In this document: positions 38,406-57,431 of the stretch, one piece after another
Position numbering within the stretch: the first letter of the stretch is position 1
How the letters are laid out: each line of letters starts with the position of its first letter
Source of the DNA: Escherichia phage Phi1
Length of the DNA stretch: 64,000 nucleotides
Sequence record: EF437941
Strand: one strand, 5' to 3'
Made by a program: the position numbers and the translations under genes
Notes under the pieces: generated by a model
The model's database searches: none
The model's input: the letters and a program-made list of their open reading frames with translations, nothing else
What the model was told of the DNA's origin: nothing

Positions 38406-38419
38406 AATATAATCCTCTA

Positions 38420-38692
38420 TCATTTCACTAATTGAACAGCACGAAACAGAATGCGGTCACACGGAAGCAGCATAAATTCCCAACGCGGATCAAAGTCTTT
38501 AGCGGTGTATGTTTTCCCATCAACAGAGATTTCACTTACATAACCAATAGGTGACACTTTAAGAACAGTAAATCCATTCTTGATTGCTTCGTAGGTATCT
38601 TTCAGACCTTCGTAGTCGTCCTCTAAGAAGTCTTTACGTGCTTGCTCAGATTTAAAAACATAGGCCACGCCAGCTTTAAACATCTTACGCAT
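38420..38692 (-). CDS. paralog family A protein (single domain)
   Basis: MRKMFKAGVAYVFKSEQARKDF ... VDGKTYTAKDF; AAGGAGAATCAACA RBS. Confidence 0.55.
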   Translation of the reverse strand: MRKMFKAGVAYVFKSEQARKDFLEDDYEGLKDTYEAIKNGFTVLKVSPIGYVSEISVDGKTYTAKDFDPRWEFMLLPCDRILFRAVQLVK

Positions 38693-38723
38693 TGTTGATT
38701 CTCCTTCTTGATTAGATGGGAGC

Positions 38724-38752
38724 ATTTTACTACTCCCATTTCTTATTGTCAA
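38724..38752 (-). promoter_or_regulatory. early promoter (PeSL-type)
   Basis: TTGACA-N17-TAAAAT with GGGAG..CTCCC hairpin. Confidence 0.5.
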
Positions 38753-39253: not shown

Positions 39254-39535
39254 TTAACCATTAATCTTGTTTTTGACTACAAAGGATCGGAACTCATCAA
39301 AGCCACCGATATAATCACCATCATAGAAAATCTGCGGCATGGTGGCAATAACTTCTACCCCTGCGCGATCCTGAATATCGGCAATGATAGAATCAATCTT
39401 TACCGGGCGACCGTTTTCGTCCACACCATCATTAACCGGAATGTAGATGTAAGGGATCTTACGCGCTTCACAAAGGCGCTTTGCATTCTGGCAATACTTA
39501 CAGTTGTAACCTTCAAAACCAAAAATTTCTACCAT
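39254..39535 (-). CDS. nrdC: NrdC thioredoxin/glutaredoxin
   Basis: CKYC active site followed by NAKRL as in T4 thioredoxin (CVYC..NAKRL); about 93 aa. Confidence 0.75.
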   Translation of the reverse strand: MVEIFGFEGYNCKYCQNAKRLCEARKIPYIYIPVNDGVDENGRPVKIDSIIADIQDRAGVEVIATMPQIFYDGDYIGGFDEFRSFVVKNKING

Positions 39536-42659: not shown

Positions 42660-42989
42660 TTATGATTTTAGTGAATTAACTACTACATCAAAATGATGTA
42701 CAGAGTACACCTTACGAAACACGTATTCATCATGTTTAGGAATCGCCCCTAACCGCTCTATTTCGCTCGCTGACACGATAAACCGCTTATCTGGTGCATT
42801 TACCTTATATGCTTCAACAACGCACGGAAAACGCGTTTTAGCGAGTTCTGGATAGTTTTCCGAATCCATCAGGACAATGAATACCCTATTACATTGATTG
42901 TAGAATCCTGTTTTTGATTTCATCAAGTTTTCTTCTCTGTGAAATTCGTGCAATCTTCCTTTCATGATTTCGTTGGTTCCTGTCTTCAT
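42660..42989 (-). CDS. hypothetical protein
   Basis: ORF; start uncertain (overlaps upstream ORF). Confidence 0.45.
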   Translation of the reverse strand: MKTGTNEIMKGRLHEFHREENLMKSKTGFYNQCNRVFIVLMDSENYPELAKTRFPCVVEAYKVNAPDKRFIVSASEIERLGAIPKHDEYVFRKVYSVHHFDVVVNSLKS

Positions 42990-43230
42990 AGTCTACCCAC
43001 TCAACAAGGTCTTTACCTAACTCGAAAGCCCATTCTCGGTCCTGCTTTACGTTTTGTAGGTATGGGCTTTCCGACACTCGACGAAGTGATGTTGTCGTAA
43101 CAAGAATGATCCCAGGAATGGTCGGATGTTCCTTGCCATATACAATAGGACGCGAGTTACTATCAATACCTTGTAAGAAGGTGTATCCTGAATCACTTAG
43201 AATCATATACTTTTTCATTTCACACATCAC
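42889..43230 (-). CDS. hypothetical protein
   Basis: 113-aa ORF. Confidence 0.45.
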   Translation of the reverse strand: MMCEMKKYMILSDSGYTFLQGIDSNSRPIVYGKEHPTIPGIILVTTTSLRRVSESPYLQNVKQDREWAFELGKDLVEWVDYEDRNQRNHERKIARISQRRKLDEIKNRILQSM

Positions 43231-43487
43231 AGTTTCCTCAACCAGTTATTAAAGCGAGTAAACCATGATGCTTTTCGTGCTTCTTCTTCGGCTTTGCACG
43301 CACGCAAACCACTGAAACACCATTCATAATCATCACTGAAACATGATTCAACAGGAACACCCGCATTTCGTAGTTCTCTGGTCGTTATCATGAATCCTTG
43401 ACATAATGGGCGACCTTCAACAATGATAGGAAGTTTAACTTTTTCCATGAAAGTATACCCAGCACGGTCAATAATTTCAATCTTCAT
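43227..43487 (-). CDS. paralog family B protein
   Basis: MKIEIIDRAGYTFMEKVKLPIIVEGR...; paralog of 43505..43702 and 45820..46041. Confidence 0.5.
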   Translation of the reverse strand: MKIEIIDRAGYTFMEKVKLPIIVEGRPLCQGFMITTRELRNAGVPVESCFSDDYEWCFSGLRACKAEEEARKASWFTRFNNWLRKL

Positions 43488-43504
43488 AATATAATCTCAA
43501 TTAG

Positions 43505-43702
43505 TTATACCGCCCAGGCTTCATTTGCACGAAAACACCATTCATACTCAGGAAAATAACCTTTAATTGGTACGCCAGCTTTTTGTAGTTCCTGCGTTTC
43601 TACAAGATAATCAAGCCCATAACGACGACCTTCCACGATGATAGGAAGTTTAACGCCATTCATGAAAGAAAATCCACCGTCATCAATAATTTCAATTTTC
43701 AT
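43505..43702 (-). CDS. paralog family B protein
   Basis: MKIEIIDDGGFSFMNGVKLPIIVEGR...YEWCF. Confidence 0.5.
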   Translation of the reverse strand: MKIEIIDDGGFSFMNGVKLPIIVEGRRYGLDYLVETQELQKAGVPIKGYFPEYEWCFRANEAWAV

Positions 43703-43946
43703 TTACATTATCTCCATAGATCTTTCCAGCAATATCAATTTCACCAGCGCGAACATCTAGGATAAGATGCGGTAGGTGTATGCAGTTTTCCCACCCTACG
43801 CGCTTCATTTCTTCTACGGTAACGTAAGCCCACCCGTTCGCTGTAATAAAGTCTACTTCAACCTTGATAGGAAAGCAAGACTTTTCTATGTCTTCGAATC
43901 CGACAATATGTTTTGTTGTTGAATATGGAATATATCCGGTGATCAT
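43692..43946 (-). CDS. hypothetical protein
   Basis: 84-aa ORF. Confidence 0.45.
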   Translation of the reverse strand: MITGYIPYSTTKHIVGFEDIEKSCFPIKVEVDFITANGWAYVTVEEMKRVGWENCIHLPHLILDVRAGEIDIAGKIYGDNVNEN

Positions 43947-44404
43947 TTTGTGATCTCCTTATACTCAACACACCATAAGCGGGTAGCCCATGATAAACGC
44001 TCATAACGCTGGCAGAAATCGGACCATAGATATTGTGCACCGTTCGGCATAGTTGAAATATGCGTTTTCTCTCCAACTTTCACGAAAGAAGTATTCGATT
44101 TTGTGATCTCGACCGGAGTATATCCGAAAGCGGGTTCCAATCCAACATCTGAACTAAATTCCAATTTAACAGAATTTGTTTTTCTGACCGCTGTACGGTT
44201 TCCTTCTGGGTATAGCACAGCAGGTTTAGCGCCTAAGCGGATAAACTCAGTGTTTTTAATAAACAGAATATCATGATAACCGTCATATTCCGACACTTCC
44301 ATAGTAACAGGAAAATCGATATGTGCTAAACCTGGTAGATCTCGCATATCATGAAATGTAGCCATCAACTTTTTCATCTTGTATGCCTCACTCTTCTGTT
44401 TCAT
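43943..44404 (-). CDS. hypothetical protein
   Basis: 153-aa ORF. Confidence 0.5.
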   Translation of the reverse strand: MKQKSEAYKMKKLMATFHDMRDLPGLAHIDFPVTMEVSEYDGYHDILFIKNTEFIRLGAKPAVLYPEGNRTAVRKTNSVKLEFSSDVGLEPAFGYTPVEITKSNTSFVKVGEKTHISTMPNGAQYLWSDFCQRYERLSWATRLWCVEYKEITK

Positions 44405-44624
44405 TTCTTTTATATGGTACTATAACAGGATTAATACAGCAAGCACCAATTACGTTATGAGCACCACAATTTAAACATTTATAGTCATGGAACTTATTAA
44501 GAAATCGACCAAACTCATAACCGACTAGCGCCGCATGTACTTGAGTCTCGATCTCATCCATATCAGCCAATGTTTTAACCTTCATAGTATAATCCTCAAA
44601 TGGTAGTTTTGCGAAGATGGTCAT
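44388..44624 (-). CDS. hypothetical protein
   Basis: 78-aa ORF. Confidence 0.45.
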   Translation of the reverse strand: MTIFAKLPFEDYTMKVKTLADMDEIETQVHAALVGYEFGRFLNKFHDYKCLNCGAHNVIGACCINPVIVPYKRNETEE

Positions 44625-44886
44625 TACATGCTTTTAATGCATCGGTCGCGGTGTCATAGCGAGTATTATCATAGCACCAATAACCATCTGTCAACTGATA
44701 AATTAATCCATCCTTTTTAGCTTCGATGAAAGACAACTCTTTGAAAGTTTCTACTTTCTTTGCTGATACTCCACGGTCACGGCGTTTATAGAGTTTAGCT
44801 AAAATGCGTTCAGCTTGTTCCTCTTTATCGCCAGACAGATCCCAGATGATGCTTCGGATATGCTTGATTAATTGTTCAGTGGTCAT
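44596..44886 (-). CDS. hypothetical protein
   Basis: 96-aa ORF with cassette RBS. Confidence 0.5.
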   Translation of the reverse strand: MTTEQLIKHIRSIIWDLSGDKEEQAERILAKLYKRRDRGVSAKKVETFKELSFIEAKKDGLIYQLTDGYWCYDNTRYDTATDALKACNDHLRKTTI

Positions 44887-44915
44887 CTTTGATTCTCCTT
44901 AGTTGGTATGCGTGC

Positions 44916-44943
44916 ATTATAGCATTGTGATTATCTTTGTCAA
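44916..44943 (-). promoter_or_regulatory. early promoter
   Basis: TTGACA-N16-TATAAT. Confidence 0.5.
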
Positions 44944-44947
44944 CACC

Positions 44948-44981
44948 CAAAAAACAAAAAAGGCTATCCCGAAGGATAGCC
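44948..44981 (-). terminator. rho-independent terminator
   Basis: GGCTATCCTTCGGGATAGCC hairpin followed by T-run on minus strand. Confidence 0.6.
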
Positions 44982-44988
44982 CATAAAA

Positions 44989-45765
44989 TTACACGCGAGC
45001 ACCGTAGATCGTGCCTACTTTATCCCAACGAGGGGCATTACCAGTAACGGCTTTACCAGCAGCACCACCGTTATATTCTGTACCGTTACCCTGAGTATTA
45101 CATCTTCCTCCAGCAGCACCAACGTTACCTCCAGCACCGCCTGTATATGCACTAAGAGACCCCGAACCAACAGATCCTTTACCTGGAGCGGAAATGGAGC
45201 CAGCGGTTGCACCAGAACCCATATTAGAGGAAGACCCACCAGCACCGAATGGGCGACCACCGCCACCACCAAATACTAGTATACCCCTGTTACCGCCACC
45301 ACCACCGCCACCGCCGCCAACGATAGCACCGTTATTTGTAATTCGTAGACGTGTACCGATAGCGTTATTGATTGCGTTTCCACCAGCAGCGCCAGCAGCG
45401 TTACTACCACCATTACCCCCACGTCCGTAGACAGTCACACCGGAGTTAATGATCAATGTTACATATTCGTTTGTTAACGAGCTAGGGAAGTCAAGACAAG
45501 GAACGCCAGTAGAATGAGAAACAATATTACCAGTGATAGTAATTACTACCGGAGTAGATCCTTGTGCTTTCATCCAGTTAATAAGAGTGTCTTTATTGTA
45601 AGAGTTACTAGCACCAATGCTATAATGAATCTCTTTAGAGCGTCCGACCATTGCCGACATATACGCCGGACGACCTAAGCGTACAGCTTGCATTGCGGCG
45701 CTCATCCACCGTTGACCAGTCTCGGACACCGCAGATGATCCTACCCATCCAGAAGATATTGCCAT
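44989..45765 (-). CDS. glycine-rich protein (function unknown)
   Basis: 258 aa; globular N-terminal region then long Gly/Ala/Ser/Asn low-complexity region with G9 run; GAGGA RBS; own terminator. Confidence 0.6.
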   Translation of the reverse strand: MAISSGWVGSSAVSETGQRWMSAAMQAVRLGRPAYMSAMVGRSKEIHYSIGASNSYNKDTLINWMKAQGSTPVVITITGNIVSHSTGVPCLDFPSSLTNEYVTLIINSGVTVYGRGGNGGSNAAGAAGGNAINNAIGTRLRITNNGAIVGGGGGGGGGNRGILVFGGGGGRPFGAGGSSSNMGSGATAGSISAPGKGSVGSGSLSAYTGGAGGNVGAAGGRCNTQGNGTEYNGGAAGKAVTGNAPRWDKVGTIYGARV

Positions 45766-45819
45766 AAAATTTCCTCACAAGAAAAGCCCCAATTAAGGGG
45801 CATTGATTGATAATATTAC

Positions 45820-46041
45820 TTAGATGACCTCTGCTTCACCATCCAGGAAGAAAGACCATGTTTTGTTAGGATAGCGAAGCGCCCATGATTCAGCAGTTTT
45901 AACACCAGCTTCGAACAATTGACGGCTGGTTACTTTAGCCATACCATCTTCGATGGCAACGTTTTCAATAATCATCGGGTACTTAGCGCCACGCATGAAA
46001 CCGAAACCAGCGGAAGATTTGATAATTTTAACAGTTGCCAT
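45820..46041 (-). CDS. paralog family B protein
   Basis: MATVKIIKSSAGFGFMRGAKYPMIIENV...; internal ATG after GGAGAATCAAAA. Confidence 0.5.
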   Translation of the reverse strand: MATVKIIKSSAGFGFMRGAKYPMIIENVAIEDGMAKVTSRQLFEAGVKTAESWALRYPNKTWSFFLDGEAEVI

Positions 46042-46080
46042 TTTTGATTCTCCTAGAAAGTGTCGTGTTTCGATGGGTGT

Positions 46081-46110
46081 ATTATGCAATAACACCGGAA
46101 CGATGTCAAC
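46081..46110 (-). promoter_or_regulatory. early promoter
   Basis: TTGACA-N17-CATAAT. Confidence 0.5.
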
Positions 46111-46127
46111 ACTTTCTAAGAAAAATT

Positions 46128-46412
46128 TTAAATTAATCGAATATAGCCCAGAATTTCAGCACCTTTAGCTAGTCCTAAAACCTCCCATTCAAGGTCGCCG
46201 TAGTCATAATTTGCAACCATCAGTTCACCGTTTTTCATGCAGCAATCATGAGAGAAAATTTGCCCCGCATAAACTACGATAGTAATAAACTTTCCTGATT
46301 CTGGCGGTATGGAAGACAAAGCGACCATATGACCATTCAGCTTAGTCACCAGTGATGGAACAATAAAATTCGGGCTTACCTGAATACCGTTAAATTCGTT
46401 TGTGTCTTTCAT
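46128..46412 (-). CDS. hypothetical protein
   Basis: 94-aa ORF. Confidence 0.45.
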   Translation of the reverse strand: MKDTNEFNGIQVSPNFIVPSLVTKLNGHMVALSSIPPESGKFITIVVYAGQIFSHDCCMKNGELMVANYDYGDLEWEVLGLAKGAEILGYIRLI

Positions 46413-46759
46413 GCCAGACCTCGCAAAACACTAATAGCATAATCATGCTGGTTATTCATAATATCAATTGCATTGTGATAACGAGCTAAACCATCAAGGA
46501 TAAATTCTTGTTTATCCTGTTTCAGTTTGGTATCACGCGCAGCCATAAGAGCATCGAGAACAGGTCCAAAGTGATTATCTAATTCATCTTCGGTTGCAAT
46601 GTTTCCTATTGCATCGTCGATCCGTGATTCTAATGCTTGCTTTTCGTTGATCACTTGCTGGGTATATTCCAACACATCAAGAATATCGCGGGTAACGTCG
46701 CCATGATAAGGTATCCCCGCATGAAGATGATCAATTAATCGCTGAATATCAATGTTCAT
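46409..46759 (-). CDS. hypothetical protein
   Basis: 116-aa ORF. Confidence 0.5.
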   Translation of the reverse strand: MNIDIQRLIDHLHAGIPYHGDVTRDILDVLEYTQQVINEKQALESRIDDAIGNIATEDELDNHFGPVLDALMAARDTKLKQDKQEFILDGLARYHNAIDIMNNQHDYAISVLRGLA

Positions 46760-47094
46760 TTGTAACCCTCCTCTGAAAGCACATCCCAGATCGTTGCGTC
46801 AAGATGCATTAAATTCCACATAATAGAGTCATAACTACCGAAGCCAGAAGTAAAAATTACATCACACTGGCGATAAGTCTTATGAAAATCGGTAGCGGTC
46901 TTTGCGTCAATAGGCATATCGTCACCGGAAAGCACCAGACATTTAAGAATCATAACTCTGTTAGCCGTTGGCGCTTGCTTAGTCTTTTCAGCATATTTTT
47001 CGATGATCCGTTTTGCCTTTTCTTCTTTGATACGTCCAGACCAAATCCGGTTTCGGTATTGATTCATAATAATTTCAATCACATCATTTTGCAT
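46756..47094 (-). CDS. hypothetical protein
   Basis: 112-aa ORF. Confidence 0.5.
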   Translation of the reverse strand: MQNDVIEIIMNQYRNRIWSGRIKEEKAKRIIEKYAEKTKQAPTANRVMILKCLVLSGDDMPIDAKTATDFHKTYRQCDVIFTSGFGSYDSIMWNLMHLDATIWDVLSEEGYK

Positions 47095-47293
47095 TCTTCA
47101 CGGTCTCCATAATTGTTTTGTAAGCCAGTTTAAGATGATCACCGAAAAACTTTGCAGTGTTACCCTTCGGATCGCGGAGCATGGTTTCTACGATCTCATC
47201 GGCAGTAACAATTTCTCCTTTCTTTGCTGCATGTTCTACCATATACTTCAAAGTTTCTTCGGAAGCAAGTGCTGCGGCTACTGGATTAATCAT
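47084..47293 (-). CDS. hypothetical protein
   Basis: 69-aa ORF with cassette RBS. Confidence 0.5.
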   Translation of the reverse strand: MINPVAAALASEETLKYMVEHAAKKGEIVTADEIVETMLRDPKGNTAKFFGDHLKLAYKTIMETVKNAK

Positions 47294-47322
47294 TTTGATT
47301 CTCCTTTGTTGTCGATGTGTGC

Positions 47323-47351
47323 ATTATGCTATACCATGATCCGGTTGTCAA
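47323..47351 (-). promoter_or_regulatory. early promoter
   Basis: TTGACA-N17-CATAAT. Confidence 0.5.
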
Positions 47352-47361
47352 CACCTAAAAA

Positions 47362-47387
47362 CGAAAAAGCCACCCTTTCGGATGGCT
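47362..47387 (-). terminator. rho-independent terminator
   Basis: AGCCATCCGAAAGGGTGGCT hairpin followed by T-run. Confidence 0.55.
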
Positions 47388-47402
47388 TTTGATTATATTT
47401 TA

Positions 47403-47700
47403 TTCACGTCCATTTGTATAGTAGTGTTTGAATCGACCGTAACCAGTTTCAATGGTCATTGTTCTTTGGTGAACAATAGCCCAATAACCGTTACAGGAAT
47501 ATTGCAGATACAAATCTTTACCTTTCATAAACTCATTAAAGATTGTTTCTGCCAGTCATAATAGACAACATCTTCAAGTTACCCATCCATGCGGGTCTTC
47601 CGATTCGGCAGTAATTGAACACGCGAAAGTATGAGGAAGCCAAATGGTTGTGTTAATGCTAGTTTTCTTTTACTTCTGGTATGTATCCCACTGTGACTAA
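47403..47700 (-). pseudogene. possible decayed gene / gene remnant
   Basis: three short minus-strand ORF fragments (14, about 40, and 42 codons) in different frames, no long ORF, no obvious RBS. Confidence 0.25.
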
Positions 47701-47702
47701 CA

Positions 47703-48101
47703 TTAAGCCAGTCGAGTGAGTTTATAAATTGTTTTAAAGCATAGAGCTTTGATATCGTCTAAAACACTCTGTAACGAGCTATCAACATCATTATAAATCT
47801 CACTAGCCATTTGCGTTAACTCTTGCAAATAGGCAATTTCGCTAATCTCCTTGCGGACGACCAACGTTGGCTGATAACGACCAGTGATCCCAATATTGGT
47901 TTCAGTGAAATTATCAACCAATTCTTGCATTTCAAGATAGAACTCTTCTAGAGCCTTATGTTTTGCATAAGACCCCGGACCAGTTACCCCAAAATGCGCA
48001 GAATGCATATAAGTAACACTCATCAGACATTCACCGATAAAGCGGTCAACTTTATTAGCTTTCCCATCTTCGGACGTCTTTCGAAAATCACTGAATTTCA
48101 T
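47703..48101 (-). CDS. hypothetical protein, possibly ferritin/Dps-like
   Basis: YMHSAHFGVTGPGSYAKHKALEEFY resembles Dps helix-A/B signature; shorter than Dps; start set at internal ATG. Confidence 0.45.
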   Translation of the reverse strand: MKFSDFRKTSEDGKANKVDRFIGECLMSVTYMHSAHFGVTGPGSYAKHKALEEFYLEMQELVDNFTETNIGITGRYQPTLVVRKEISEIAYLQELTQMASEIYNDVDSSLQSVLDDIKALCFKTIYKLTRLA

Positions 48102-48390
48102 GTTCTCGATTCTCCATATTATGCAACATAACAAATTGTTGTGCGGCATATTCCCCCATAATAAAACACTGCTTAGAATCCATACATTTACTACGAGCAT
48201 ACATCTTCATAATATGGGCATGAAATTTCTGGCTGGTTTCAATGGAAGGAGATATTTTGTTTACATATACTATCATTGCACCGTCGAAATAATCAGTAAA
48301 GTCACCAGTTGGATCATATTGATCAGCACTAACGCTTCCGACCGCAGTAAAGCATATTGCCGCTGTTAGAGTTTTACGAATAAATGACAT
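48088..48390 (-). CDS. rI: RI lysis-inhibition antiholin-like periplasmic protein
   Basis: 100 aa; N-terminal signal/anchor; two Cys in C-terminal domain; adjacent to tk; late-promoter motif upstream. Confidence 0.55.
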   Translation of the reverse strand: MSFIRKTLTAAICFTAVGSVSADQYDPTGDFTDYFDGAMIVYVNKISPSIETSQKFHAHIMKMYARSKCMDSKQCFIMGEYAAQQFVMLHNMENREHEIQ

Positions 48391-48423
48391 AAGTCATTCC
48401 CCCAGATTTAAAATATTCAGTTA

Positions 48424-48431
48424 TATTTATA
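48424..48431 (-). promoter_or_regulatory. T4-type late promoter motif TATAAATA
   Basis: exact TATAAATA on minus strand about 35 nt upstream of the rI-like ATG. Confidence 0.45.
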
Positions 48432-48458
48432 ATCTGGGGCTTTATTTATGATTAACTC

Positions 48459-49055
48459 TTATTTGGTAGTACCGTCAATAAAATGTTTACGGCACACAGA
48501 AACATATTTATCCTCTGCACCAACTTCTATTTGAGCACCATCGCGAATAACATTACCATCTTTATCTACTCGAAGGACCATTGTTGCTTTCTTGCCACAA
48601 TGACAAATACCCTTCATTTCGACCAGCTTATCGGCAAATGCCATTAATGCCGCAGATCCTTCAAATAGATTGCCCTGAAAGTCAGTGCGAAGGCCATAGC
48701 ACAGTACAGGGATATTTGCATCATCAACAAGCGCACACAAGCCTAAAACATGCTCTTTAGTCATAAATTGGGCTTCGTCTACAAAAACTGCATCTGGACG
48801 CCATCGATCCGGTCTACGCTTACCTAACGATTCACGATAAACCAAGTCGAAAAGATCATCAGATTTAGTGAAGGTGATCGCTGGAGCACTTAGGCCAATT
48901 CGGGAAACGACTTCACTTTCTGAATCTCGATTATCAATCGCTGGCTTAAGAATTAATACTCGCATATCACGTTCGGTATAGTTATAAGCACTTTGTAATA
49001 GGGAAGTTGATTTGCCAGCGTTCATAGATGCATAGTAGAAATATAATTGCGCCAT
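48459..49055 (-). CDS. tk: thymidine kinase
   Basis: 198 aa; P-loop MNAGKST, VDEAQF, zinc ribbon CHCGKKA ... CRKH. Confidence 0.9.
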   Translation of the reverse strand: MAQLYFYYASMNAGKSTSLLQSAYNYTERDMRVLILKPAIDNRDSESEVVSRIGLSAPAITFTKSDDLFDLVYRESLGKRRPDRWRPDAVFVDEAQFMTKEHVLGLCALVDDANIPVLCYGLRTDFQGNLFEGSAALMAFADKLVEMKGICHCGKKATMVLRVDKDGNVIRDGAQIEVGAEDKYVSVCRKHFIDGTTK

Positions 49056-49348
49056 TAATTAATCTCCAAAAATCCAGCAAGACCTAAACCGATATAAGTC
49101 CATATACCAATAAAAAAGATGTTAATGCTCATGGCAAGGATAAACCCTTTCAGCGTTTTGGGATACCCAACCCAATATTCCCGACCATCTTCTAACCGGA
49201 TCAACTTATTGCCTTGCGAGTCCATATCAACTACAACATGTTTATTTCGAGATTGCACTAGATATTGTTTTACAATCTCTACACCCGCCATAATAACAAT
49301 AACGAAAATAAAAGTCCACACAACAAGATTAATGATAGTCTCAAGCAT
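49055..49348 (-). CDS. hypothetical membrane protein
   Basis: 97 aa, two hydrophobic segments. Confidence 0.5.
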   Translation of the reverse strand: MLETIINLVVWTFIFVIVIMAGVEIVKQYLVQSRNKHVVVDMDSQGNKLIRLEDGREYWVGYPKTLKGFILAMSINIFFIGIWTYIGLGLAGFLEIN

Positions 49349-49391
49349 TTTCTATCACCTCCACCCAATCAGGTGTTTCCTGAAAGACTCC

Positions 49392-49583
49392 TTAGCCTTC
49401 ATGATGGTCGCAACCTTTATTGCTACAGTACATCCACCAATCCCACATTCCCCACGGTAAACGCTGCATATCGTCGTTACAACAAGTGAAGATGATAGGC
49501 CAACCACATCTAACACATCGGCAGTTTTCTTTCATGTGAGCGGTATTAGGCTTCTTCATAGATGACTCCAATATAATCGACAT
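49392..49583 (-). CDS. Cys-rich small protein
   Basis: 63 aa; CRCVRCG ... CCND ... CSNKGC. Confidence 0.4.
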   Translation of the reverse strand: MSIILESSMKKPNTAHMKENCRCVRCGWPIIFTCCNDDMQRLPWGMWDWWMYCSNKGCDHHEG

Positions 49584-49786
49584 TTACATTTAGGGCAATG
49601 CGGTTCTTTAATATAATACCCGTCTGTCTTTGGAACACTAACAGGAGCGGTTTTTATATTATATTCAGTGAAACAACGAAAACAAGTTACGTTTTCTACA
49701 GACTGACGTTTCACCCAATCACCGGAATATAGATCATTTTTATTTGTCATATTCAACCACCACAATGTTAATGTCTGGAGTAGCAA
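49556..49786 (-). CDS. Cys-rich small protein (zinc-ribbon-like)
   Basis: CFRCF ... CPKCKC. Confidence 0.4.
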   Translation of the reverse strand: MLLQTLTLWWLNMTNKNDLYSGDWVKRQSVENVTCFRCFTEYNIKTAPVSVPKTDGYYIKEPHCPKCKCRLYWSHL

Positions 49787-50195
49787 TATTAATAATCTCT
49801 TCTACACATTCCCACTCAAGGCCACCGATACCGCAACCGATTTTAGGAATATAGAAAGGCTGTATAGCACCTTCAAAAACATCATTGAGAGACTCAAATC
49901 CTTTCAGGATAGCACCATATTCAGCATTTGGACCCGGTCGGAATTGGGTATAGAGATTCACCCCGCACCAGTTATAACCATTAACTTGATGCGTCCAGAT
50001 ACTAAACCCACCCAACTTTTCTACCTTACCGCGAGAAGTTTGCTTGTCAATCTCTAACGCTTGCGGGAACTCTTTCGCGATCTTTGCAGCAATACCAGCG
50101 CCCATAGTATGAAAACAATTACAACCATGAATTAAATGACCGTTTCCTTGTTTAAACAGGGCGATGAGATCGCCCTTTACAGTATCAATAATCAT
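49740..50195 (-). CDS. macro domain protein (ADP-ribose binding/processing)
   Basis: 151 aa; HGCNCFHTMGAGIA and GCGIGG motifs typical of macro domains. Confidence 0.65.
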   Translation of the reverse strand: MIIDTVKGDLIALFKQGNGHLIHGCNCFHTMGAGIAAKIAKEFPQALEIDKQTSRGKVEKLGGFSIWTHQVNGYNWCGVNLYTQFRPGPNAEYGAILKGFESLNDVFEGAIQPFYIPKIGCGIGGLEWECVEEIINIATPDINIVVVEYDK

Positions 50196-50210
50196 AATAT
50201 AAACCTCTCA

Positions 50211-50570
50211 TTAGTCACGGGAAGACAACCCAGCCATAAAACGGCTTAACAGTGTGTCGCGATAAGCAAAGCATAATTGCTTATCAGGGGCAGTATCACA
50301 CAGGTTGCGTTTTGTTTTAGCAAAGCTGGCAATACTCAGATCCCATGCTCGATTTTTTCGTTTTTCGTCTCGACCTTGTTTGTATGCTTCATCAAGTTCG
50401 AGCGCGATAAAATCACTACACATGTTATCATCATCACAGAAAGTTTTAATTATCTTTTTGTTGATCTCAAATCCTTTGTATTCGAACTTTGGATAAGGGC
50501 GCTCATTACTAGCAAGCGCACCAGCCGAGAACATCATAGCAATCATAGCAATTATTGTCAACTTTTTCAT
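50211..50570 (-). CDS. secreted/periplasmic hypothetical protein
   Basis: 119 aa; N-terminal signal peptide (MKKLTIIAMIAMMFSAGALA), four Cys. Confidence 0.5.
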   Translation of the reverse strand: MKKLTIIAMIAMMFSAGALASNERPYPKFEYKGFEINKKIIKTFCDDDNMCSDFIALELDEAYKQGRDEKRKNRAWDLSIASFAKTKRNLCDTAPDKQLCFAYRDTLLSRFMAGLSSRD

Positions 50571-50577
50571 ATATTCC

Positions 50578-51168
50578 TCAATAGCGTTTAGTCTTAAGAA
50601 TGCCTTTACTCTTTAGATGGTTAGCCTTTTTTAGTACGTCATCAGCATAACCTAATCCGGCTTTATAGTTCCATCCAGCATTGTAAGAAGCTAGCGCGAG
50701 TCGGATATTACCGTTTCGAATATCCAGCCAGTATGCTAACTCATCCATCGCGTAGAATGCAGAAACCTCGCGATTCATGATAAAGTTGATAGTCTGGCGA
50801 TCACTCATTTTAACACCACGCTTTGCATTTTTCGCTTTCACCGTTTTAAGGTAATTTTGAAATAATCCATAAGCATGATGATTTTTCTTTGGTGCTAAGT
50901 TTGCACCCGCGCTTGATTCTTGCCATGCGATACCCGCTAGGATGTGGCCTAAACCCTTTCCGTTATAGCGAATATTCGGATGGTACTTTTTCAACTTACC
51001 GCTTTTCTCGAATTGCTCGCCGTATTGATAGGCGAAATGTAAATTATCTAGTTGGTGTGCTGTAAAGTTGTCTATCGGCGCTTTTTTGATCGGTGCGCTA
51101 GTCGATGCGTGTGTAGCACCAACGGCTAGTGACAGACTCAATACTATCGCTTTTAGAACTTTTAACAT
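50578..51168 (-). CDS. soluble lytic transglycosylase-like protein with signal peptide
   Basis: 196 aa; signal peptide; SLT motifs GIAWQES (catalytic Glu) and SYNAG. Confidence 0.65.
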   Translation of the reverse strand: MLKVLKAIVLSLSLAVGATHASTSAPIKKAPIDNFTAHQLDNLHFAYQYGEQFEKSGKLKKYHPNIRYNGKGLGHILAGIAWQESSAGANLAPKKNHHAYGLFQNYLKTVKAKNAKRGVKMSDRQTINFIMNREVSAFYAMDELAYWLDIRNGNIRLALASYNAGWNYKAGLGYADDVLKKANHLKSKGILKTKRY

Positions 51169-51204
51169 TAATTTCTCCTGTTTGGCTTAACTTTCTGATT
51201 CCAT

Positions 51205-51231
51205 AATATAGCCCTATCACCAGAAAGTCAA
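51205..51231 (-). promoter_or_regulatory. promoter (TTGACT-N15-TATATT; possible MotA-box-like TGCTTGA)
   Basis: minus strand AATGCTTGACT...TATATT upstream of SLT gene. Confidence 0.35.
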
Positions 51232-51254
51232 GCATTATTTTTAACCAATTTCCA

Positions 51255-51677
51255 TTATTGGTCTACCTTCAAAACAACCGCCGACATTTTACCCGCCAGT
51301 CGTTTTGGATTCTCTATAATCATTCGGCAGCATAGACCGTGATATGGCTTACCCTCTTCGATTAGATCTACTGTCATCCCGATCCACATGTTACCGTCAG
51401 TAATTTCTAATCGATTAGGTCGGTCTTCCATTTTCAGGAAGTCGAAGATCTCCGGCAAACGAGTTTCTATCTTATTGAATAGTTCCATTGTCTTATGTTC
51501 ATCAATATGACGATCGGTTAGACGGTCGATCATATGCGGACTAAAGCGAATGAAAATATACTCACCATAACCATCATTCAAGCACTTTTCTTTGATCTTC
51601 GCATTGGTTTTGCGCATTTCGGTTTCGAAGAATCTACGCAGCTTACTACGGCGAACATGTACGTTAATTGTTTCCAT
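51255..51677 (-). CDS. regB: RegB site-specific endoribonuclease
   Basis: RRSKLRRFFETE, RLEITDGNMWIGMTV, CRMIIENPKRLAGK match T4 RegB as remembered; start at ATG after AAGGA. Confidence 0.85.
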   Translation of the reverse strand: METINVHVRRSKLRRFFETEMRKTNAKIKEKCLNDGYGEYIFIRFSPHMIDRLTDRHIDEHKTMELFNKIETRLPEIFDFLKMEDRPNRLEITDGNMWIGMTVDLIEEGKPYHGLCCRMIIENPKRLAGKMSAVVLKVDQ

Positions 51678-51681
51678 TTTA

Positions 51682-52017
51682 TTATCCTTTCTTAAACAAA
51701 TTGCGAATCCAGTATACAAACGGGATTTCTTTAAACTTGAATTTCTCTATAGTTAATTCTTTAGTAGCAAGATGAATACCATAAGCATCATGTGTCACGA
51801 TATGCCATTTTCTATAGTCCAAATGTGAACAACCGTCTGGATCTAGGTTAATAAGAGTTTCTCGCTCACTAGGATTATTTTTCCACAATTTTGTAATAGG
51901 ATCGCACATAATTCGACCTAGCGTACCATGAATAATCTCACAACGGTAAAGTTTTCCAGCAGTGAGATAGGCGCACCCGTCATAGTCGGTATAAACAAAC
52001 ACTTCTTTAACACTCAT
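51682..52017 (-). CDS. paralog family C protein
   Basis: DGCAYL ... DPDGCSHLDYRKW; internal ATG after AAGGAG. Confidence 0.5.
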   Translation of the reverse strand: MSVKEVFVYTDYDGCAYLTAGKLYRCEIIHGTLGRIMCDPITKLWKNNPSERETLINLDPDGCSHLDYRKWHIVTHDAYGIHLATKELTIEKFKFKEIPFVYWIRNLFKKG

Positions 52018-52045
52018 TTTAATACTCCTTTGTTTCGATGGGGGT

Positions 52046-52074
52046 ATATTACTACCCCCGTTTTGTTGTGTCAA
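52046..52074 (-). promoter_or_regulatory. early promoter (PeSL-type)
   Basis: TTGACA-N17-TAATAT within GGGGGTAGTAATATACCCCC hairpin. Confidence 0.5.
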
Positions 52075-52320
52075 CTACTTTTTCAAGATTTTTTTAATTG
52101 CGTTCCAAAGACCTTTATTCTCAGGTTGTTTTGGTTCTTCGATCAGTGTCCAGGTTCGACCGTCTAAGTGTGCACAATTTTTAAGACAAATAAAAATCTG
52201 GTGTCCCTTATCATCACGGATATAACCACTATTCGCAAATCTTTCATGTGGTGTATATTCATACAGTGTATTTGGTGTAATATACTTGCGGTTACTATAA
52301 GGTGTCATCACATACATCAT
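52075..52320 (-). CDS. paralog family C protein
   Basis: NCAHLDGRTW motif. Confidence 0.5.
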   Translation of the reverse strand: MMYVMTPYSNRKYITPNTLYEYTPHERFANSGYIRDDKGHQIFICLKNCAHLDGRTWTLIEEPKQPENKGLWNAIKKILKK

Positions 52321-52511
52321 GGTACTAACTCCCATTTATCACCGCGAAGATGAGAACATCCACCATCAAGAAGGATCGTAATACGAAACCCCGCATCATC
52401 TTCAATATACCCGATAGTCGGTGGATATTCGTCGTCTCGTGCCGGGGTAAAATCATACATCTTTCCCGGTGTGATATCAGTGCCTTTATTGCTATTGGTA
52501 TAAACTTGCAT
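52317..52511 (-). CDS. paralog family C protein
   Basis: GGCSHLRGDKW motif. Confidence 0.5.
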   Translation of the reverse strand: MQVYTNSNKGTDITPGKMYDFTPARDDEYPPTIGYIEDDAGFRITILLDGGCSHLRGDKWELVP

Positions 52512-52532
52512 TTTCTTAATCTCCTATATTAA

Positions 52533-53231
52533 CTAACCACGGGTATAGTGTTCCAGAACAACTGTCAGATGAATATATTCTAATAGATCTTTCCAAAAGT
52601 CAACATCTGGTTCTTCCGGCATACCGTTTTTCTTTGCCTCTTCACGAGCGAGTTTAACACGCTCGTAGAGATCTTTCAATTCTTCCCGCACATTATCAAA
52701 GGTTCTTTCTCCTAACTTACACGCTAAAATAGAAGAACGTCGCGCGAGCGGGAATTGTAGATCACCTGTCTGATAGATTTCAAGTAGCTGATAACCAACA
52801 CGCAGAGCATGAGAAAGATCTTTCCAGTTACTGAAATACTTTTCAGATTTGGCTACCTGTTTCTTGAGATAACCAGACAAACCCCACATCCCAACATGAT
52901 AGAATTTATCGCGATGTGTTCGGATGTATTCCCATTCTCTGGAGGATTCGATCAACATGTTACTAGGAGCGTGCACCATGTCAATAGCGCCGATATCACC
53001 TTTACATGCCAGATTGATAAACCGTTTTAGACTGAACATATTAACGTCAATATCGTCTTTGGTGTTCTTGATACCTTGACCGCTAGTGCTTTGGTCATAG
53101 TGTTCTTTCATCGATCCTAAGATAATTTCTTTCGCAGTCGGAACAAAGATACCACGATAATCTTTATCGGAATTTTCAGTATCAAGGCCGTATAAGTGAG
53201 ATCCGAAGACCATTTTAACCATTGTATGCAT
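52533..53231 (-). CDS. Pol-beta superfamily nucleotidyltransferase (function unknown)
   Basis: 232 aa; N-terminal FGSHLYG-x6-SDKD = G[SG]x(9-13)DxD nucleotidyltransferase signature; helical C-terminal half; GAGGG RBS. Confidence 0.65.
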   Translation of the reverse strand: MHTMVKMVFGSHLYGLDTENSDKDYRGIFVPTAKEIILGSMKEHYDQSTSGQGIKNTKDDIDVNMFSLKRFINLACKGDIGAIDMVHAPSNMLIESSREWEYIRTHRDKFYHVGMWGLSGYLKKQVAKSEKYFSNWKDLSHALRVGYQLLEIYQTGDLQFPLARRSSILACKLGERTFDNVREELKDLYERVKLAREEAKKNGMPEEPDVDFWKDLLEYIHLTVVLEHYTRG

Positions 53232-54835: not shown

Positions 54836-55027
54836 TTAGATTCCGGCGATCCTGCATAGAGTTCTTGTATTAGCACCAATAAGGATAGCATTAACGACAA
54901 CCATTCCCCAATCAACCCACGGATTATTATAAATGTTAAATCCGTTTGTTAGGCCAAATACAAGCATTCCAGTACACATACTCAGAGCAACAATCAACAT
55001 CACGGTAAAACCAAATGCAAATCTCAT
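54836..55027 (-). CDS. small membrane protein
   Basis: 63 aa, two hydrophobic helices. Confidence 0.45.
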   Translation of the reverse strand: MRFAFGFTVMLIVALSMCTGMLVFGLTNGFNIYNNPWVDWGMVVVNAILIGANTRTLCRIAGI

Positions 55028-55028
55028 A

Positions 55029-55295
55029 TCATTTTCCTTTTCTCTGTTTACGTTTATAAAAGTAATACATTACATCATCACGTCCGGTGATCCAACATGC
55101 TAGGGCAGTAAACAGGTTTACAATTCCCAACACACCTACTGACGCGGCGCTGTCAACAGACATAGGAACAGTAAAGGCCATAGCTAACATAGCAACGCCA
55201 CAAATGACATTAAGCACCATTATAATAAGACCGAAGAAAACCATTGTCAATCCTCCCAAATAAGAAAACCAACAATCACGCCAGTGATAAGACAT
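55029..55295 (-). CDS. small membrane protein
   Basis: 88 aa, hydrophobic. Confidence 0.45.
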   Translation of the reverse strand: MSYHWRDCWFSYLGGLTMVFFGLIIMVLNVICGVAMLAMAFTVPMSVDSAASVGVLGIVNLFTALACWITGRDDVMYYFYKRKQRKGK

Positions 55296-55438
55296 GATGC
55301 GCCGCTAATAAGACAACCCGCGCCAAGTGATTCCCACCAGATCAGAGAAGCGACAATAACGCAAAATCCCCAGACTACCGCAATCACAACATAGGCAATG
55401 GTCGCCCAAAACATATATTTGTTCATAATAAACCCCAT
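55247..55438 (-). CDS. small membrane protein
   Basis: 63 aa, hydrophobic. Confidence 0.4.
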   Translation of the reverse strand: MGFIMNKYMFWATIAYVVIAVVWGFCVIVASLIWWESLGAGCLISGASCLITGVIVGFLIWED

Positions 55439-55611
55439 TCACCAAACAAATAAGAAAAAAGCCATATCAACAGAAACGAGGCAATTGATCCGGCAAGCAA
55501 AATGATATTAGAGAATCCGCCGTCTATCCAGGCGACAAAACAGAATACGCCAGTATAGAAGCATAAACCCATTACAAAGCATACTATAAGCAACCATAGA
55601 CAAAACGCCAT
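55423..55611 (-). CDS. small membrane protein
   Basis: 62 aa, hydrophobic. Confidence 0.4.
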   Translation of the reverse strand: MAFCLWLLIVCFVMGLCFYTGVFCFVAWIDGGFSNIILLAGSIASFLLIWLFSYLFGEWGLL

Positions 55612-55672
55612 AGAAAGCCCTCCATCGAGATAAATTAGTGCGGGTAGGGGACTGCACTACCCGCTTTGTTAA

Positions 55673-55831
55673 TCAACGCAGAGCTTGTTCTAGCGCGATC
55701 CCAAACCATCCACAAACAACGCCCATACAGACAGCTACAAGAAGATTCATTCTCTCTTTAGGGATCATTGCAATCATAACAACAACCATACAGAAAGCCA
55801 TTACCATTGAAGTTAACATTTGTTCAACCAT
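55673..55831 (-). CDS. small membrane protein (52 aa)
   Basis: manual translation MVEQMLTSMVMAFCMVVVMIAM... Confidence 0.35.
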   Translation of the reverse strand: MVEQMLTSMVMAFCMVVVMIAMIPKERMNLLVAVCMGVVCGWFGIALEQALR

Positions 55832-55833
55832 TA

Positions 55834-56172
55834 TCACACCTTTAAAGTCATAGACGCATAAACATTAATGCCAGGCCAGTTAGGATCGCAATTATACTCA
55901 ACATCCCACAAATAAAGCGGTTTAGATGTATCAGCCAAGTTTTTAAAATCTTCTACCCACATTTCAATGCTATATGATGGATAAACTAGGCTGTCATATC
56001 CTCCGTAACGTTGGCCTACTGGTCGGTCAGTAAAAACTACCTCAAGATCCGGTAATTCTTTTTCAAGGATAACCGCCAGCGCATAAATCAGACGGTCTTC
56101 CTTGTTACGCTGCCGAAGGACCGTTGTCAGTTGGTTTTTCTGGTTCACTAGCAAGCACCTCCACATTTTCAC
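55834..56172 (-). CDS. hypothetical protein (start uncertain; overlaps upstream ORF by 68 nt)
   Basis: 112-aa ORF. Confidence 0.4.
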   Translation of the reverse strand: MKMWRCLLVNQKNQLTTVLRQRNKEDRLIYALAVILEKELPDLEVVFTDRPVGQRYGGYDSLVYPSYSIEMWVEDFKNLADTSKPLYLWDVEYNCDPNWPGINVYASMTLKV

Positions 56173-56425
56173 AGAATGAAATTTTCACAGACACAATTTT
56201 ACCATAAGTGAAGAATGAATATACATTATCGATATATTCAACGTCACCTACAATCACATCAAACTGCGGATCAGCAACCGCCGCAACATATTCTACCAGT
56301 TCATCAAGAGAATGCAACTTAATTTCATCAATTCGGCTGTATTTGGTTGCATCTTTGATTTTAAAACCACGTTCTTTCAGCTTATCAATTAGAATTTCAC
56401 GCGGAGTTTCAAACAGTTTGCTCAT
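56105..56425 (-). CDS. hypothetical protein
   Basis: 106-aa ORF with GAGGATT RBS. Confidence 0.5.
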   Translation of the reverse strand: MSKLFETPREILIDKLKERGFKIKDATKYSRIDEIKLHSLDELVEYVAAVADPQFDVIVGDVEYIDNVYSFFTYGKIVSVKISFCENVEVLASEPEKPTDNGPSAA

Positions 56426-56446
56426 AATATAATCCTCACATTAAAT

Positions 56447-56647
56447 CTAAAATTTGTTAACGACGAATTGCATAATTAGACTAATCACAAACATTGCAAA
56501 CCAAGTATAAATGCAACAGATAAAAGCTACATACAATTCAATCTGGTCAGAGAATACACCGGGTAAAAGCATTAGCAAAATAACAACAGTAAAGACGCTA
56601 GCGATACCCGCAACAAAACCAATATCATTTTTACTAATCGTCATCAA
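56447..56647 (-). CDS. small membrane protein
   Basis: 66 aa hydrophobic. Confidence 0.45.
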   Translation of the reverse strand: MMTISKNDIGFVAGIASVFTVVILLMLLPGVFSDQIELYVAFICCIYTWFAMFVISLIMQFVVNKF

Positions 56648-56853
56648 GTCACCGTTTTGTAAAGAAACACAATAAAATCCAAGACAAGAAAGACAGTGTA
56701 AATGATCATCGTCAAGACAGTAAACACTGTCAAATTTTCATCGTTAGTTAATTCATAGTCGCCCATCCATACAATCACAAGATATAGCATTGAAAGAATG
56801 GAAGCACCTACGAAGTTAAAAAACATATTCTTGAGCGTCATATTAACAACCAT
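56644..56853 (-). CDS. small membrane protein
   Basis: 69 aa hydrophobic. Confidence 0.45.
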   Translation of the reverse strand: MVVNMTLKNMFFNFVGASILSMLYLVIVWMGDYELTNDENLTVFTVLTMIIYTVFLVLDFIVFLYKTVT

Positions 56854-57025
56854 CGCGGCTTAAGTCAACAGCAATTGCATACAGCATAATGAATATGCTA
56901 GCAGATCCAAGAATCAATACACCCTCACATTTTGAAACTCGCTCATCAAAATGTAACATTATCCATCCGAGGATGTTAAAGGCGCAGACCGCGCCTATGT
57001 TCGCTAACCAATTAATCTTTTTCAT
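56843..57025 (-). CDS. small membrane protein
   Basis: 60 aa hydrophobic. Confidence 0.4.
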   Translation of the reverse strand: MKKINWLANIGAVCAFNILGWIMLHFDERVSKCEGVLILGSASIFIMLYAIAVDLSRDGC

Positions 57026-57033
57026 AATATACC

Positions 57034-57360
57034 TTAGAAAGAAACAGTTTTCAAGAAATCCAGATTTTCAGTACCGAAAACAGAAAAGTAGTGTTTTCCT
57101 TTTTCGGTTTTAGAGAAAGCGATTGTCTTCTCTACATGGTGACGGAAGCCAGACAGACGATCACCCAGGTCAAGGCGGCAAGCGTAAGTAGTGCCGTTTT
57201 CGAAAGTAACCTCGATTTGAGTTTTGTCATATTCGCTTTCATAGGCTTTTGCTGCCGCGTCCTGTGCTTTACGCTCGAAGTCTTCGAAGTGGAATACTTC
57301 GTTTGCGTTAGCGAATACAGAAGATTCAGAGAAGATAACTTTAACAGATACTGGTTTCAT
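57034..57360 (-). CDS. hypothetical protein
   Basis: 108-aa ORF with cassette RBS. Confidence 0.5.
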   Translation of the reverse strand: MKPVSVKVIFSESSVFANANEVFHFEDFERKAQDAAAKAYESEYDKTQIEVTFENGTTYACRLDLGDRLSGFRHHVEKTIAFSKTEKGKHYFSVFGTENLDFLKTVSF

Positions 57361-57402
57361 TTTGATACTCCTTAGTAGTTCGTGTTTCGTTTCGATGGGT
57401 GT

Positions 57403-57431
57403 ATTATGCTATACACCCTCTTGTGTGTCAA
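57403..57431 (-). promoter_or_regulatory. early promoter
   Basis: TTGACA-N17-CATAAT. Confidence 0.5.

Follow-up and report, generated by a model that had tools for sequence, protein, structure and literature searches.

Escherichia phage Phi1 (sequence record EF437941) carries six very short genes between positions 43,227 and 52,511 of the 64,000-nucleotide (nt) stretch analysed here, which we call the window, and the questions raised by this locus are whether these genes are related to one another, how they arose, and what their products may do. The window is approximately 97% identical to coliphage RB49, which belongs to Krischvirus, the RB49-like T4-type coliphages. The products of the six open reading frames (ORFs) are 91–100% identical to RB49 gene products, all of which are annotated as hypothetical proteins. 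A sequence-only reading had proposed that the ORFs form two paralog families, B (B1, B2 and B3) and C (C1, C2 and C3, in tandem), with three copies each, that the members of each family share a motif, and that they reflect local gene duplication. The six ORFs were found at the coordinates given in that reading, on the minus strand, which it had not specified (Table 1). As described below, both families are true paralogs in local or tandem arrangement, and family B turned out to be larger than proposed.

Pairwise BLASTP comparisons united the members of each family. B1 and B2 are 57% identical over 58 amino acids (aa) (E = 8.5e-23), and the B1/B3 and B2/B3 pairs gave E-values of 7e-7 and 9e-6, respectively. 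In family C, the E-values were 8e-12 for C2/C3, 7e-5 for C1/C3 and 1e-3 for C1/C2. No B-versus-C pair was significant (E ≥ 0.08 or no match). Furthermore, PHROG profiles, which were built independently of the window, gathered the same proteins: phrog_7345, a 66-position profile, was matched full-length by B1 (E = 2.8e-38, profile positions 1–65), B2 (1.3e-35) and B3 (4.9e-34), and phrog_6261 was matched full-length by C1 (1.1e-37) and C3 (3.6e-29), with C2 matching phrog_15978 (6.9e-61) and secondarily phrog_6261 (6.3e-6). The motif similarity noticed earlier is thus significant on alignment. B1 and B2 carry MKIEIID..G.SFM..VKLPIIVEG...YEWCF and B3 has a looser version of it; the family-C motif DGCSHL/NCAHLDGRTW was present as quoted.

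Given that the ORFs are very short (64–111 aa) and that the C1/C2 similarity is weak when taken singly, one might suppose that the motifs are chance or compositional similarities of unrelated ORFs, or that the ORFs are not genes. We assign practically no probability to this explanation, since the pairwise E-values reach 1e-22 and 1e-11, independent profiles unite the members, tblastn found orthologues in more than 60 phage records, the AlphaFold2 models are very confident, and the ratio of nonsynonymous to synonymous substitutions (dN/dS) is far below 1. Specifically, pooled Nei–Gojobori dN/dS across seven Krischvirus genomes was 0.02 for B2, 0.06 for B3, 0.14 for C1, 0.16 for C2 (one allele class) and 0.26 for C3, similar to the values of neighbouring known genes. 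The BLASTP, PHROG, AlphaFold2 and dN/dS results together refute the chance or non-gene reading, and the six ORFs are real genes under purifying selection.

AlphaFold2, supplied with the family alignments, modelled B1 as a small beta-barrel followed by a helix at residues 70–85 (mean predicted local distance difference test, pLDDT, 86.7, and >93 over residues 1–60), and C3 as a compact barrel whose last strand is preceded by a 3-10 turn (pLDDT 96.3, predicted template modelling score 0.82). The models suggest that the proteins would have an SH3-like beta-barrel of five strands at their core. A profile comparison of family C with family B detected no relation (hhalign probability 0.35%). Note that B2 residues 2–20 (IEIIDDGGFSFMNGVKL; 43643–43699) are locally similar to C3 residues 43–61 (ITILLDGGCSHLRGDKW; 52329–52385), at an hhalign probability of 27.8% over 19 columns and a BLASTP E of 0.08. 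Chance, a strand-turn-strand motif common to both or a circular permutation could explain this similarity, and we claim no relation from it.

Database searches placed neither family. No Pfam or NCBIfam family was above threshold for the members, nor any Pfam family for 98 family-C relatives, and the Pfam SH3 and KOW models gave no match at E up to 1 in either set. The sole recurrent Pfam match for family C, DUF6501 (PF20111), was found in 5 of the 98 relatives (best E = 1.1e-3; the metagenomic protein P0051 scored 16.4 bits versus a gathering threshold of 23.8) and not in C1–C3. FosA-type NCBIfam matches of C1 were far under the cut-offs and were dismissed. A PDB sequence search matched no solved structure with either family, and a BFVD fold search returned uncharacterized phage proteins only.

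We then asked how far family B extends, naming further genes by their RB49 ORF numbers (072c for RB49ORF072c, and so on). When a hidden Markov model (HMM) of B1–B3 was run against the 1021 six-frame ORFs of the window, the adjacent same-strand genes 072c, 075c and 071c were among the four best non-self matches. In the same set of ORFs, 072c scored E = 0.011 and 0.0024 with HMMs built without it. In addition, a B-core profile of 35 sequences, from which 071c, 072c, 075c and 076c were left out, was compared with ortholog alignments by hhalign. The probability was 92.5% for 071c (E = 4.8e-7), 86.8% for 076c (4.3e-6), 69.6% for 072c (4.2e-5 over 55 columns) and 20% for 075c (1e-3). Among control genes from the same region, 26 of 27 stayed below 3%, and the exception was a 19-column local match to C3. 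071c and 076c also matched each other by BLASTP (E = 1e-3). At the DNA level, B1, B2 and 075c have a 35-nt repeat in common (71% identity) that spans the FPIxVE motif, and B1 and B2 share a 77-nt 5' repeat (79% identity). On the basis of the hhalign matches and the 35-nt repeat over FPIxVE, the run from 076c to 071c, together with 080c (B3), probably represents a single gene family that has diverged and has six or seven members. Family B comprises four to seven related genes, which form a run around g38, the adhesin gene; the three copies proposed earlier stand, and the total was under-counted by 071c, 072c, 076c and, weakly, 075c.

Two other genes of this block, 078c (44596–44886) and 083c (46756–47094), show weak N-terminal similarity (E = 0.03). 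Taken with the similarity of 071c and 076c, this may mean that more of the block around g38 derives from an old segmental duplication.

The B domain was also found beyond Krischvirus, namely in an ORF of Escherichia phage LL5 (Tlsvirus), in Proteus phage RS51pmB, which has two such genes, in genes of Providencia phage PSTCR6 and Morganella phage Rgz1, and in a metagenomic T4-like contig. These distant members are 65–85 aa long, with an N-terminal MKIKxl..GG....l..i.fPvvVeG and a C-terminal f.lg.EaEvv. The LL5 ORF (locus L003, 1102–1314, plus strand) is unannotated and matches the B profile with E = 1e-6; the LL5 record annotates an opposite-strand coding sequence over it, HOT39_gp85, which is probably mis-called.

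Family C is not a local invention but a widespread phage domain: an exhaustive profile search of 1.84 billion representative proteins returned 348 clusters at 50% identity (E up to 1e-3). The clusters are mostly stand-alone proteins of 58–70 aa, and 135 of 163 members have no extension in a tally whose profile included tail columns and which we used for this point only. The consensus is MKVKTDY.GC.YiTaGKvYEv....G.I.DD.G..i.I.l..CAHL.Gg.WEvV, in which Y19 and W60 are invariant and T14, K17, D39, C52 and H54 near-invariant. The isolated phages that carry the domain include large Vibrio myoviruses and a Klebsiella Jedunavirus. An ORF at 11239–11442 of the window was tried as a fourth member and not accepted (E = 0.21).

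The location of the C array was examined in other T4-like genomes. In the metagenomic T4-like contigs L005 and L006, C domains lie between nrdC.11 (RlaP) and regB, as in the window, in phages whose nrdC.11, regB and tk are 57%, 51% and 63% identical to those of the window. L005 has two C genes before the contig ends; these are the reciprocal-best orthologues of C3 and C2, and the C2 orthologue (L005b) has a C2-type tail. L006 has five consecutive C genes with six domains, among them the fused two-domain P0051. The position between nrdC.11 and regB is therefore conserved in several T4-like lineages. Phage T4 itself gave no C or B match at E up to 1 in a six-frame HMM search of its 48–68 kb region, except an insignificant B match (E = 0.18), and its genes vs.3, vs.4 and vs.5, which occupy the syntenic position, are ruled out as family-C homologues by this search.

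The order RlaP, C array, regB, which is kept in three divergent T4-like lineages, would be expected if family C consisted of nucleic-acid (RNA)-binding cofactors linked to the RegB endoribonuclease and the nrdC.11/RlaP nucleotidyltransferase. We consider this improbable, since T4 has regB and nrdC.11 and no detectable C domain, since C domains occur without regB nearby in Vibrio and Klebsiella phages and other phage contigs, and since the consensus core is acidic rather than basic. As a side observation, phage G2248 (locus L016) has its C1 orthologue and its vs.1 (1191–1526 and 2041–2631) both labelled 'putative endoribonuclease RegB', a label apparently carried over from the true regB next to them.

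In addition to P0051, three- and four-domain C fusions were found (P0061 and P0059, respectively), and such natural fusions point to paralogs that cooperate or that have a multivalent target. A module with ...PKTWGEMTDAEKGALLLA.HEGK.IE... is common to several other C-domain fusions. In the metagenomic protein P0153, the C domain is followed by a sub-threshold match to the Tad2-like domain (Thoeris anti-defence 2, DUF2829; E = 7.8e-4, 20.4 bits versus a cut-off of 25).

How old are the duplications? The paralogs share only 33–57% amino-acid identity, most pairs being 33–40% identical without DNA-level similarity, and judged by this divergence the duplications are old, not recent. Moreover, because C2 and C3 each have a reciprocal-best orthologue in L005, a phage whose nrdC.11 is 57% identical, the C2/C3 duplication predates the divergence of these phages. 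An origin of both families in recent duplication bursts within this phage lineage might be argued from the adjacent or tandem arrangement of the members, from the 77-nt repeat that B1 and B2 retain, and from the occurrence of B2 in only some Krischviruses, which implies that this copy at least was gained or lost recently. In view of the divergence of most pairs and the separate C2 and C3 orthologues, as well as the C array of L006 at the same locus and the B-type genes, sometimes in two copies, of unrelated Proteus, Providencia, Morganella and Tls-like phages, we think such an origin unlikely.

The arrays have since been reshaped. Most genes of the region are 95–100% identical among Krischviruses, and B3 is conserved at 96–99%; B1 falls into two allele classes (58–62% versus 91–95% identity), and so does C2 (70–73% versus 95–100%). 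Copy number differs among related phages, as the comparison suggested by the sequence-only reading revealed: B2 is absent from JSE, Makalu_001 and G2248. The adhesin gene g38 is 78–84% identical among relatives and absent in G2248. Furthermore, four metagenomic proteins are in-frame chimeras, joining the N-terminus of C3 to the C-terminus of C2 (P0034), B2 to B1 (P0005), B3 to a 075c-like C-terminus (P0027) and 084c to B2 (P0029), in the same order. These chimeras indicate that the arrays are reshaped by recombination between paralogs and between unrelated neighbours.

Several observations concern the surroundings of g38. The gene (44989–45765) lies inside the hyperplastic region, away from the usual tail-fibre block. 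In G2248 (L016), where it is missing from this position, 080c is directly followed by 078c, and the chimeras P0027 and P0029 imply deletions that would also have removed g38. Brandy (L013, 5608–7755) and G2248 (L016, 5529–7673) have an extra gene of ~715 aa between 084c and rI.-1, where the window (~47300–47700) and RB49 have a ~300-nt gap with a stem-loop and promoter, that is, an insertion or deletion at a site resembling the promoter cassettes described below.

B1, C2 and C1 bear C-terminal tails that B2, B3 and C3 do not have (Table 1). When the C-terminal 14-mers of the 122 minus-strand ORFs of the window were ranked by hydrophobic moment, the last 14 residues of C2 (NKGLWNAIKKILKK) ranked second (0.63), the B1 tail third (0.63, charge +3) and the C1 tail 15th (0.49, charge +3); the C2 tail 13-mer has a moment of 0.72 and a charge of +5. 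The highest moment of the window was that of 072c. For comparison, the FtsA helix has a moment of 0.57 and a charge of +3. The three tails agree with FtsA/MinD-type membrane-targeting sequences in being extreme C-terminal, amphipathic and net positive, and a helix is predicted for B1. Similar C tails occur elsewhere, in L005b (GVWAKIVEKFKKLL), in the third C gene of L006 (KIVCFWKTKIW) and in P0052, and in divergent B1 alleles the tail is nearly constant and the barrel changed.

The B1 tail resembles the experimentally defined amphipathic membrane helix of Escherichia coli FtsA, GSWIKRLNSWLRKEF, residues 405–420 (PMC9098913). The ungapped BLOSUM62 score was 52, compared with 19.4 ± 4.2 for shuffled tails, none of 1000 of which reached 52. 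The best PDB sequence match of the tail was the C-terminal helix of yeast Nup53, KSKKSWLNRLNNWL (E = 1.3), which is a documented membrane-binding amphipathic helix (PMC8700311). With moderate confidence, we predict from these properties that the tails are convergent membrane-targeting helices.

A more specific proposal is that B1 mimics FtsA, a captured or imitated membrane-targeting helix interfering with the divisome and blocking host division. It would fit the identity of 8 of 13 aligned residues to FtsA residues 406–418 (SWIKRLNSWLRKE), the extreme C-terminal location of both helices and the score far above shuffles. The codon-register DNA identity is 25/42, which is no more than the protein identity implies and gives no sign of a recent capture of the ftsA 3' end by B1, an idea that we therefore reject. 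The comparable match to yeast Nup53 speaks for a generic membrane-binding helix reached by convergence. As far as is known, the helix of FtsA binds lipid and no particular protein partner, which also counts against mimicry, and we regard the proposal as very unlikely.

Both arrays contain a predicted promoter, before B3 and before C1 (Table 1). The two cassettes follow the pattern TGTTGACA-N17-(C/T)A(T/A)(A/T)AT-AC(A/C)CCCATCGAAAC with a subsequent GGAG ribosome-binding site, and align over ~60 nt with those before 078c, 084c and two genes near 57.4 and 58.3 kb. Exact copies of CCCATCGAAAC number four on the minus strand versus 0.98 expected, at 46067–46077, 52032–52042, 57389–57399 and 58349–58359, just downstream of the -10 box. 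Immediately upstream of B3, no stem-loop was detected. Cassettes combining an early promoter and a stem-loop (promoter-early stem-loop, PeSL), as well as hyperplastic regions, were described in RB49 and phi1 (Arbiol et al. 2010, PMC2839356), and the cassettes seen here match them; RB49 novel ORFs are reported to cluster among early genes (PMC1524935). The genes are probably expressed early, as predicted from their sigma-70-type, PeSL-like promoters.

The coordinates of these features are listed in Table 1. By megablast, positions 43000–52600 matched 84 phage records; the top ones (Cognac, Whisky, RB49, JSE and others), all Krischvirus, were 95–98% identical over 97–98% of the query. Every gene of the region is on the minus strand, in the transcription order vs.8, vs.6, nrdC.11, C3, C2, C1, regB, vs.1, vs, tk.4, three small ORFs and tk, followed by rI, rI.-1, 084c to 081c, B3, g38 (adhesin), 078c to 075c, B2, B1, 072c and 071c. 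Shine-Dalgarno sequences precede the chosen starts, for example AGGAG 8 nt before the ATG of B3. The C2 start at 52320, with GGGAG 7 nt upstream, is better supported than the upstream start annotated in RB49, and since it overlaps the C3 stop, translational coupling of the two genes is suggested.

Table 1. Family members, C-terminal tails and promoter cassettes in the window (barrels as predicted from models).
Feature	Coordinates	Strand	Description
B1 (RB49ORF073c)	43227..43487	minus	86 aa; predicted SH3-like barrel (residues 1–60) and C-terminal helix
B2 (RB49ORF074c)	43505..43702	minus	65 aa; predicted barrel alone, without tail
B3 (RB49ORF080c)	45820..46041	minus	73 aa; predicted barrel alone; upstream of g38
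C1 (RB49ORF095c)	51682..52017	minus	111 aa; C domain, extension and tail
C2 (RB49ORF096c)	52075..52320	minus	81 aa; C domain, Pro-rich linker and tail
C3 (RB49ORF097c)	52317..52511	minus	64 aa; C domain alone; stop overlaps C2 start (ATGA)
RB49ORF071c	42660..42923	minus	87 aa; probable B-superfamily member
RB49ORF072c	42889..43227	minus	112 aa; probable fourth B-family member, long charged C-terminal helix
RB49ORF075c	43692..43946	minus	84 aa; possible B-superfamily member (weak)
RB49ORF076c	43943..44377	minus	144 aa; probable N-terminal B-superfamily domain
B1 tail	43230..43280	minus	ARKASWFTRFNNWLRKL; predicted cationic amphipathic helix (70–85), putative membrane-targeting sequence
C1 tail	51685..51726	minus	IPFVYWIRNLFKKG; amphipathic, basic
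C2 tail	52078..52116	minus	KGLWNAIKKILKK; amphipathic, after proline-rich linker
Promoter cassette before B3	46081..46109	minus	predicted early sigma-70-type TTGACA-17-CATAAT, then ACACCCATCGAAAC; promoter scan 11/12
Promoter cassette before C1	52046..52074	minus	predicted early sigma-70-type TTGACA-17-TAATAT, then ACCCCCATCGAAAC; overlaps stem-loop 52037–52062

Other repeats were noticed in the window, all on the minus strand. A larger paralog group at 29916–32227 and 36055–38725, with M(K/E)WE(I/V)GKTY... starts and BLASTP E-values of 1e-5 to 8e-12, includes a two-domain member (30394–31218) and is presumably the family A of the sequence-only reading. Tandem mini-paralogs of 58 and 55 aa (6218–6394 and 6396–6563) end in ...CINKM(T/I)EHFTKRGF (BLASTP E = 4e-8), and two glutaredoxin/NrdC-like ORFs ~9 kb apart (29650–29919 and 39254–39535) are 33% identical (E = 8e-10). 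Finally, positions 54836–59875 hold a long run of ORFs of 52–88 aa that are strongly hydrophobic and transmembrane-looking.

Our account, which taken as a whole we consider moderately probable, is that B and C are two sequence-unrelated families of small (64–111 aa) accessory proteins in a hyperplastic region of an RB49-type T4-like coliphage. Their copies were produced by old tandem duplication and are kept by purifying selection, with recombination reshuffling them through loss and gain, allele replacement, and paralog chimeras and fusions. The barrels may be binding modules for host or phage macromolecules in early infection. B1, C2 and C1 would be anchored to the cytoplasmic membrane, on its inner face, by an FtsA/MinD/Nup53-type C-terminal cationic amphipathic helix, and the paralogs that lack a tail would work in the cytosol or associate with the anchored ones. 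B1 and C2, which vary unusually, may take part in an arms race by inhibiting host defences or by being their targets. That the barrels are binding modules directed against host targets or defences is held with low confidence.

Several points weigh against this account. Pfam, NCBIfam, PHROG annotation, PDB sequence and BFVD searches, as sources of function, gave uncharacterized proteins only. Membrane binding is predicted from sequence properties, and early timing rests on promoter prediction. The FtsA likeness was recognised post hoc, and by our own Karlin–Altschul estimate a 17-mer match of this score has a proteome-wide E of ~0.2; the Nup53 match has an E of 1.3. As for the variability of B1 and C2, hot spots of recombination or a relaxed constraint could account for it instead of an arms race.

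The same variability bears on another explanation, in which the proteins serve in counter-defence or as decoys: every barrel would bind and block, or be sensed by, an immunity protein of the host, with the paralogs covering different host alleles. Consistent with this, no genes of the region vary more than B1 and C2, which equal or exceed the adhesin gp38 in this respect; the genes belong to a hyperplastic region that is non-essential (PMC2839356); and P0153 combines a C domain with a sub-threshold Tad2-like domain. The Tad2 match is under the Pfam cut-off, however, no described anti-defence protein was matched, and B3, B2 and C1 are highly conserved and not diversifying. Gp54 of phage Bas11 (PDB 9axb) is a small beta-barrel of six strands that triggers CapRel(SJ46) (PMC11578894); it is ruled out as a sequence relative, since a profile search of the PDB gave no match at E up to 10. 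We regard the counter-defence explanation as possible and clearly less probable than the accessory-protein account.

A bolder version of that account, which we think rather doubtful, takes each array as a set of interchangeable SH3-like modules in which one paralog tethers the set to the inner membrane through its FtsA/Nup53-like helix, giving a membrane-anchored multi-barrel scaffold that captures or inactivates a host factor early. If this were true, the targets might include a component of the divisome or envelope, or a defence protein associated with the membrane, the fused two- to four-domain versions in other phages would show that the modules work together, and B1 and C2, the tethered members, would follow host variation through their rapid turnover of alleles.

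T4-like phages give much of their genome to early ORFans, and 151 'novel ORFs' were counted in RB49 (PMC1524935). At least 10 ORFs of this 10-kb stretch fall into two barrel families, of which family C is a candidate new domain family absent from Pfam. A block of hypothetical genes thus yields testable hypotheses on localisation, partners and interplay with defence, and the current view of phage biology would change only if a function were discovered. Public databases already include the genes and their clustering, in the form of hypothetical proteins and PHROGs; the literature we searched (PMC2839356, PMC1524935, and a Krischvirus/defence search) contained no account of the paralogy, fold or tails of these ORFs or of the conserved locus of the C array. 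The finding is correct and fairly ordinary for a T4-like hyperplastic region, and its extensions are modestly interesting.

Among known systems, the nearest are the PHROG families phrog_7345, phrog_6261 and phrog_15978, to which the window proteins belong over their full length with high scores (E = 1e-29 to 1e-61) and which carry no function. The paralogy, fold, tails and enlarged membership reported here appear neither in PHROGs nor in the RB49 papers PMC2839356 and PMC1524935. The predicted fold would be closest to that of SH3-like small beta-barrels, i.e., SH3, KOW, the retroviral integrase C-terminal domain and bacterial SH3b. Bas11 Gp54 comes from a different phage group, and its barrel has six strands, not the five predicted here. 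The helices of FtsA, MinD and Nup53 are like the tails in their extreme C-terminal position, length (13–17 residues), high hydrophobic moment, charge of +3 to +5 and a face of Trp/Phe/Leu, and FtsA and Nup53 have the pattern SW-x-x-R-x-N-x-WL in common with the B1 tail. However, the FtsA/MinD helix sits on an actin-like or ParA-like ATPase, whereas that of B1 sits on a 60-residue barrel. Finally, the PeSL cassettes of RB49 and phi1 have the same kind of strong sigma-70-like promoter as found before B3 and C1, and stem-loop plus promoter units flank neighbouring genes. Gene shuffling between PeSLs was described there; in this locus some rearrangements join paralog coding sequences in frame (P0005 and P0034), so that recombination within gene families also contributes, besides PeSL shuffling.

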